Origin: Escherichia coli
GTDB taxonomy: Bacteria; Pseudomonadota; Gammaproteobacteria; Enterobacterales; Enterobacteriaceae
NCBI RefSeq assembly: GCF_003790525.1
Contig: NZ_CP033635.1
DNA: 64,000 nt
Strand: one strand, 5' to 3'
Shown here: piece by piece, positions 29,033 to 29,100 of the stretch
Numbering within the stretch: position 1 is the stretch's first letter
Layout of the letters: every line of letters starts with the position of its first letter
Notes under the pieces: model-generated
Seen by the model: the letters and a program-made list of their open reading frames with translations, nothing else
What the model was told of the DNA's origin: nothing
Databases searched by the model: none
Position numbers and translations under genes: made by a program

Positions 29033-29100
29033 ATGTTCCCTTAATTATCTGGTCAGTTAACAATAACAATTATCTGGCTATAACTGATAATGCAGATAAC

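Follow-up and report, generated by a model that had tools for sequence, protein, structure and literature searches.

The rpnC-rpnCSs module of Escherichia coli, described by Zhong et al. (PNAS 2023, Fig. 2I; PMC10400941), is the closest known system to the region studied here, and is in fact this very locus and gene. In the passages of that paper that were examined, stand-alone rpn antitoxin copies are said to be able to disappear by deletion or by fusion with the N-terminal part of rpn, RpnCS blocks RpnCL only at matching repeat number, transcription is reported to begin internally as well, ahead of the rpnCS start, and tagged RpnESs, but not RpnCSs, is reported as detected. The same passages make no mention of the 68-bp intergenic joint between rpnC and rpnCSs, of the 10-bp direct repeat within it, or of a 43-bp allele of the joint with one copy of the repeat.

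The rpnE-ypaA pair (rpnESs) of E. coli K-12 is an independent duplication of an rpn tail; the stand-alone RpnS gene that it produced follows immediately downstream, in the same orientation. Its joint is clean – a 12-bp gap with no short direct repeat, in which the internal Shine-Dalgarno sequence and ATG (AAAGGAGAGATTAATG) were copied intact. Unlike this pair, rpnCSs has a new start codon and a new Shine-Dalgarno sequence, and its joint is 68 bp long. Since the rpnE-ypaA joint lacks a repeat, rpnSs genes do not in general need one. Short direct repeats are familiar sites of deletion or duplication, by slipped-strand events or RecA-independent recombination, which leave alleles differing by one copy of the repeat plus the spacer. 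The alleles of the rpnCSs joint differ in this same way, by one copy plus spacer (25 bp), but unlike unstable sites of this kind the joint shows no contraction or expansion among 1555 carrier genomes.

The reading favored here, at a probability of about 0.55, is that the two 10-mers came about as a structural by-product when the 3’ tail of rpnC and part of the spacer downstream of it were duplicated and a junction formed, an event that would have produced the stand-alone antitoxin gene rpnCSs.

The rpnC-rpnCSs locus

The window (the whole 64-kb stretch of DNA that was analysed) comes from E. coli strain SMS-3-5 and matches NC_010498.1 at 100%. Its genes here run in the order panB, panC (+), a small ORF (-), rpnC (-) and panD (+). 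RpnC matches PF04754 (E = 1.7e-87), and the stop codon of its gene is at 29101-29103. The small ORF lies directly downstream of rpnC on the same strand, a layout shared by 15 E. coli loci and E. marmotae, and its protein has 56% identity to RpnC residues 235–306 (E = 6e-20). An earlier note on this DNA, made from the sequence, treated the ORF as an orphan; it is in fact the rpnCSs gene of Zhong et al. (PMC10400941). A protein identical to that of rpnCSs has a precomputed PF27070 (HTH_Rpn_C / DUF4351-type) annotation, while the local Pfam scan gave no match to PF27070. The features of the region are these, in window positions:

28740..28770, no strand: GC-rich hairpin TAACTGGCGC / GCGCCAGTTA in the panC-rpnCSs intergenic region (inverted repeat I7)
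28817..29032, - strand: rpnCSs (the former “orphan tail ORF”), encoding 71 aa; the antitoxin domain from the C terminus of RpnC, here as a separate second copy
29037..29042, - strand: Shine-Dalgarno-like AAGGGA, read from the sequence, 4 nt (ACAT) before the rpnCSs ATG (29030-29032)
29043..29052, - strand: repeat copy 2, rpnCSs-proximal, CCAGATAATT, directly 5’ of the Shine-Dalgarno sequence
29053..29067, - strand: spacer of 15 nt that separates the copies, GTTATTGTTAACTGA in this orientation
29068..29077, - strand: repeat copy 1, rpnC-proximal, CCAGATAATT on the coding strand
29078..29100, - strand: rpnC-proximal end of the gap (23 nt), diverged from the ancestral rpnC spacer of which it is a copy
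29101..30021, - strand: rpnC (yadD), PD-(D/E)XK Rpn nuclease toxin with the internal RpnCS antitoxin frame (RefSeq annotation)

The gap between rpnC and the small ORF is 68 bp (29033-29100) and the copies of the repeat are 25 bp apart, start to start, both as the earlier note had it. The gap contains exactly two copies of the 10-mer AATTATCTGG (29043-29052 and 29068-29077), each one base higher than first reported; a third copy, at 22622, is in unrelated, coding-looking sequence. On the - strand the gap reads TAA-GTTATCTGCATTATCAGTTATAG-CCAGATAATT-GTTATTGTTAACTGA-CCAGATAATT-AAGGGAACAT-ATG, where TAA is the rpnC stop and ATG the rpnCSs start. The first bases of the rpnC-proximal 23 nt, GTTATCTG, are an inverted match to the repeats (inverted pair I10).

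The hairpin at 28740-28770 is the sole terminator-like structure downstream of rpnC, and it is kept in all strains compared, with or without rpnCSs. At four loci (L004, L139, L144 and L146) the panC-rpnCSs spacer contains an extra insert of about 14 bp past window position ~28780, which creates a short palindrome (CAGACGTCATCGCCATGACGTGG) in the interval from rpnCSs to the terminator hairpin; part of it (GATGACGTGGGGTAAATTAA) is also present in K-12.

Near its N terminus, the rpnCSs protein has a run of four-amino-acid repeats, a hallmark of Rpn tails (FQKG FQKG YKEG LQKV), whose number and sequence differ between strains. The corresponding tract in the RpnC tail (29101-29300) is different, reading RQEE RQEV RQEV IQEV RQEV RQEF. 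These hypervariable four-residue repeats of both tails are encoded by tandem 12-bp repeats (28945-28977 and 29198-29281), whose copy number is strain-dependent. Given the different tracts and the reported rule of matching repeat number, the rpnCSs of the window may fail to neutralise the toxin of the adjacent rpnC. The rpnCSs of strain CFT073 is annotated as a pseudogene.

Distribution and conservation of the joint

The 68-bp rpnC-rpnCSs joint was found in 1555 of 5426 complete E. coli genomes (29%), and also in E. marmotae. In K-12 the whole 312-bp unit, including the gap, is absent. A 45-bp core of the joint, spanning both copies of the repeat and the Shine-Dalgarno sequence, was 100% identical in 1538 of the 1555 carriers (98.9%), so the repeat is not a quirk of one assembly. 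The core had no match outside the rpnC-rpnCSs locus in the 5426 genomes. Neither a one-copy nor a three-copy form was found in the common background among the complete genomes (1555 carriers), and the repeat site is not unstable. In at least one complete genome, three places match the core, which is the maximum per genome, and the module may be present there in multiple copies.

A search of genome contigs with the pattern CCAGATAATTN{10,20}CCAGATAATT was uninformative for this locus – the matches listed included unrelated Lachnospiraceae and Bacteroidetes MAGs and no Escherichia. In many Lachnospiraceae and Clostridia MAGs (L014-L093) CCAGATAATT recurs at a spacing of ~30 nt, in tandem in L048, L068 and L084, which points to an unrelated repeated element.

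The length of the gap is also conserved. It is 68 bp in E. marmotae, in other Escherichia lineages, and in all of the 15 aligned E. coli loci but one; GMF054 has lost 3 bp of the spacer, and its gap is 65 bp. In E. marmotae, copy 1 is CCAGATAATG (9/10 bases kept), copy 2 is unchanged (10/10), and there are two substitutions in the 15-nt spacer between them. Copy 2 was invariant in every two-copy haplotype examined, E. marmotae included. The AAGGGA was kept across haplotypes with one exception, AAGAGA in Escherichia sp. E4930.

Diversity is unevenly distributed across the region. The rpnC-proximal 23 nt of the gap are variable, with 6 polymorphic sites among strains, and the 3’ part of rpnCSs and the spacer downstream of it are far more variable than the junction. 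In the 15-locus alignment, the junction stretch of ~100 nt from copy 1 to the 5’ coding part of rpnCSs had 3 SNP columns and 1 indel, and the rate of variable columns was 3/100, versus 22/134 in the flank on the rpnC side (Fisher p = 0.003, calculated with 20/134 for the flank rather than the alignment count of 22/134). Within the core, 1 of 20 repeat positions was changed versus 4 of the 25 others in the spacer and Shine-Dalgarno sequence (Fisher p = 0.36). The low diversity is thus a property of the entire ~100-nt junction-specific stretch, not of the repeats in particular.

Neither rpnC nor the strains lacking rpnCSs have a counterpart of this low-diversity stretch. A single origin, together with the lack of a homologous partner in strains without rpnCSs from which variation could be imported by recombination, would account for its low diversity, unlike that of the flanks, and does so as well as selection does.

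Origin of the joint and of the two copies

In strains without rpnCSs (such as MS20653 and E597), the sequence downstream of rpnC is TAA-GTTGTCTGCATTATGAATAATTGCCTACAGATAACGTGGCAATGAATAACTGG... The first 47 nt of the gap are colinear with this ancestral spacer, with a score of 17.5 (shuffles had a mean of 7.4, sd 1.4, and a maximum of 14.5). Seven bases of copy 1, CAGATAA, fall on an ancestral CAGATAA that appears as TACAGATAACG in the MS20653 and E597 spacer. Copy 1 is therefore largely inherited, and lies within the part of the gap descended from the old rpnC spacer. The 15 nt between the copies are weakly colinear with ancestral ...GGCAATGAATAACTG, at p ~0.11 on their own. Homology to the ancestral spacer runs up to ...TTAACTG, which forms the foot of the terminator hairpin shared by panC and rpnC, and ends there. 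Copy 2 starts one base past this end, at the beginning of a 21-nt junction-specific segment that also provides the adjoining ribosome-binding site of rpnCSs. A search for the source of these last 21 nt (ACCAGATAATTAAGGGAACAT) gave no match, and the gap together with the 5’ end of rpnCSs aligned to internal rpnC sequence no better than shuffles did.

Several candidate origins were rejected. Against a 25-bp tandem duplication, the 15 nt after copy 1 and after copy 2, compared by eye, share just 3/15 bases. Derivation of copy 2 from the right arm of the panC terminator (CCAGTTAAAT, 8/10) after deletion of the hairpin rested on an alignment that was not significant (p = 0.29). An IS or MITE footprint was also rejected; there are no element ends, the copies are 15 nt apart, and the inverted end is at most 4 nt.

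A rare allele of the joint has one copy of the repeat. Two E. coli drafts (L148, GCA_031091935.1, and L149, GCA_040040565.1; 1458-1500) have a 43-bp gap with a single copy, CCGGATAATT, arranged as ...GTTATAG-CCGGATAATT-AAGGGAACCT-ATG and shorter than the common form by exactly one 25-bp period. In both, rpnCSs is an intact gene for 75 aa, of rather divergent sequence (63% identity). This allele was found in none of the 5426 complete E. coli genomes. The alleles are one repeat period apart, so the 10-mers mark the ends of a real indel event; this speaks against pure coincidence.

Two histories would connect the alleles, each with its own route to copy 2. In one, the two-copy joint would be original – a nearby 10-mer would have been re-used as the joint formed, and the one-copy allele would have arisen later by deletion between the copies. 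In the other, the joint would have begun with one copy and 25 bp would have been inserted into it. The two-copy-first history is favored, at about 60:40, because the extra 15 nt appear colinear with the ancestral spacer.

The earlier note had offered two readings of the repeat, a scar of the duplication event and a binding site for a regulator, and of these the scar fits the evidence best. The 47 colinear nt, the position of copy 1 on ancestral CAGATAA, the start of copy 2 at the end of that homology and the 25-bp allele all speak for it, and it is supported in part. The same note held that a repeat conserved downstream of rpnC in strains without the ORF would tell against its proposals. Such strains have 7/10 bases of one copy, and the two-copy arrangement is absent from them, so that this objection applies only fractionally.

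The 3’ ends of rpnC vary in a way that touches on loss of the module. The K-12 rpnC 3’ end (…AEIDKVINLI, with two extra codons) resembles the 3’ end of rpnCSs, not that of SMS-3-5 rpnC (…AEVDKLIS), when K-12 (L001) 508-560 is compared with window 28817-28860; the E597 rpnC end (…VDKLINSN) is also rpnCSs-like. Judged from these likenesses, K-12 looks like a product of rpnC-rpnCSs fusion, and the pattern would fit loss of the module by that route.

Alternative readings and biological meaning

Both copies are kept in 1538 of 1555 E. coli carriers and in E. marmotae, a point against a by-product, as selection on the repeats could give the same pattern. The repeats might accordingly be cis-regulatory DNA for rpnCSs, either -10 elements or two half-sites for a regulator, that allow its expression independently of rpnC; we consider this unlikely. 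Each copy holds GATAAT, a near-consensus -10 hexamer, and is suitably placed on the 5’ side of the Shine-Dalgarno sequence; the hexamer of copy 1 ends 36 nt, and that of copy 2 11 nt, ahead of the ATG. Both copies have been retained from E. coli to E. marmotae while the intervening spacer changed at 2 positions, and the identity of the core in 98.9% of carriers is in keeping with such a role. However, the best -35/-10 pairs in E. coli score 8/12, have poor -35 elements or 19-nt spacers, and fall below the scan threshold; the best hand-scored promoter, also 8/12, uses the GATAAT of copy 1 as the -10 and has a poor -35. No sigma-70 promoter was matched at the scan threshold (-35/-10 with a 16-18 nt spacer) on the coding strand of 28700-29500, a negative of limited sensitivity that is weak because the same scan was also blank at the internal transcription start reported ahead of rpnCS. 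The 25-bp spacing places the copies on different faces of the helix and becomes 22 bp in GMF054, the one-copy allele retains an intact rpnCSs, and the repeats show no statistical excess of conservation over neighboring bases. An antisense promoter on the + strand (ATAACA-17-GATAAT, 29063-29091) was also considered and rejected; it scores 9/12, with 0.9 such matches expected by chance, and its -35 is not conserved in E. marmotae. The identity of the 10-mers could instead be a coincidence, unlinked to duplication or function, in an AT-rich spacer of TTATC/GATAA-like hexamers, which is distinctly unlikely. An exact direct repeat of at least 10 nt arose in just 0.3% of 200,000 composition-matched shuffles of the 68-nt gap, and the allele shorter by exactly one repeat period marks the two copies as the ends of an indel. 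On the other side, exact direct repeats of at least 10 nt at a spacing of 10-60 number 21 across all 64 kb of the window (versus ~3 in Markov simulations), copy 1 is mostly inherited from ancestral sequence, and the gap is rich in GTTATC, ATTATC, GTTATA, GATAAT, GTTATT and GTTAAC, which raises the odds of a repeat. The repeat is improbable for this single gap, yet unexceptional across the window.

Two more specific regulatory roles are much less probable. The sequence GUUAUCUG at the rpnC stop codon has 9-bp complementarity (pair I10) to either copy of CAGAUAAU, and alternate pairing in the mRNA could couple translation of rpnCSs to termination on rpnC. The minimum-free-energy fold does join the stop-proximal arm to copy 2, but the RNA of the gap folds no more stably than shuffles (-13.6 vs -13.1 kcal/mol, z = -0.19), the 5’ arm in E. 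marmotae (GUUGCCGG) has two mismatches that are uncompensated in either copy, and Rfam gave nothing relevant, its sole match being a sub-threshold fluoride match elsewhere; such coupling is very improbable. The repeats and their spacer could also form a Fur operator of GATAAT-type hexamers, linking expression of rpnCSs to iron status, and this is hardly credible. The segment 29056-29074 matches the 19-bp Fur consensus (GATAATGATAATCATTATC) at 14/19, the same score as a site at 9294 that is presumably the fhuA Fur box, and the E. marmotae gap matches at 17/19. About a dozen other sites in the window also score 14/19, several of them within coding repeats, and the one-copy allele has no Fur-like site. 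The core in CFT073 is identical to that of the window, with the gap at 158118-158185, and published CFT073 ChIP-exo data have consecutive Fur peaks at 156700-156712 (inside panD) and 177904 (fhuA), with none at the gap; in a second, independent ChIP study of CFT073, the sole entry for panD/yadD is 156719. Regulation of the gap by Fur in E. coli is essentially excluded.

The peak inside panD was reported in the published Fur ChIP-exo data for W3110, BL21 and CFT073. In the window, panD (30295-30675) has a 13/19 match to the Fur consensus at 30492 on the - strand, an intragenic Fur site adjoining rpnC.

The proposal of a regulator binding site is thus unsupported – there is no sigma-70 match on the coding strand at the scan threshold, no extra conservation of the repeats (p = 0.36), and no Fur ChIP-exo peak at the gap in CFT073 – and the repeat probably has no dedicated regulatory role. 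Transcription of rpnCSs would most likely be by read-through from two upstream sources, the rpnC promoter and the internal rpnCS promoters, with translation starting from the AAGGGA of rpnCSs itself. Read-through is suggested by the lack of a terminator-like site in the gap; no intrinsic terminator (GC-rich hairpin and T run) was found in the 68 bp or in the scan of 28700-29500.

It is quite improbable that a dedicated, regulated promoter, with the GATAAT 10-mers as its operator or -10 elements, lets RpnCSs be made independently of rpnC. If one did, the expected partner of RpnCSs would be a different RpnC allele, because its four-amino-acid tract differs from that of the resident RpnC tail, and the locus would hold a switchable immunity module inside an anti-phage toxin-antitoxin locus.

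The rpnCSs module is already known, and the repeat is a minor detail of it that is absent from the passages of PMC10400941 examined. Beyond those passages of the 2023 paper, the joint is seen to have a single, highly conserved form, with a 68-bp gap in 29% of complete E. coli genomes; its first 47 nt go back to the former rpnC spacer, whereas rpnCSs has a new ribosome-binding site and a new start codon, and a rare one-copy allele exists. These details could aid in reconstructing the duplication and loss of Rpn antitoxin tails, or in designing constructs for the expression of rpnCSs.
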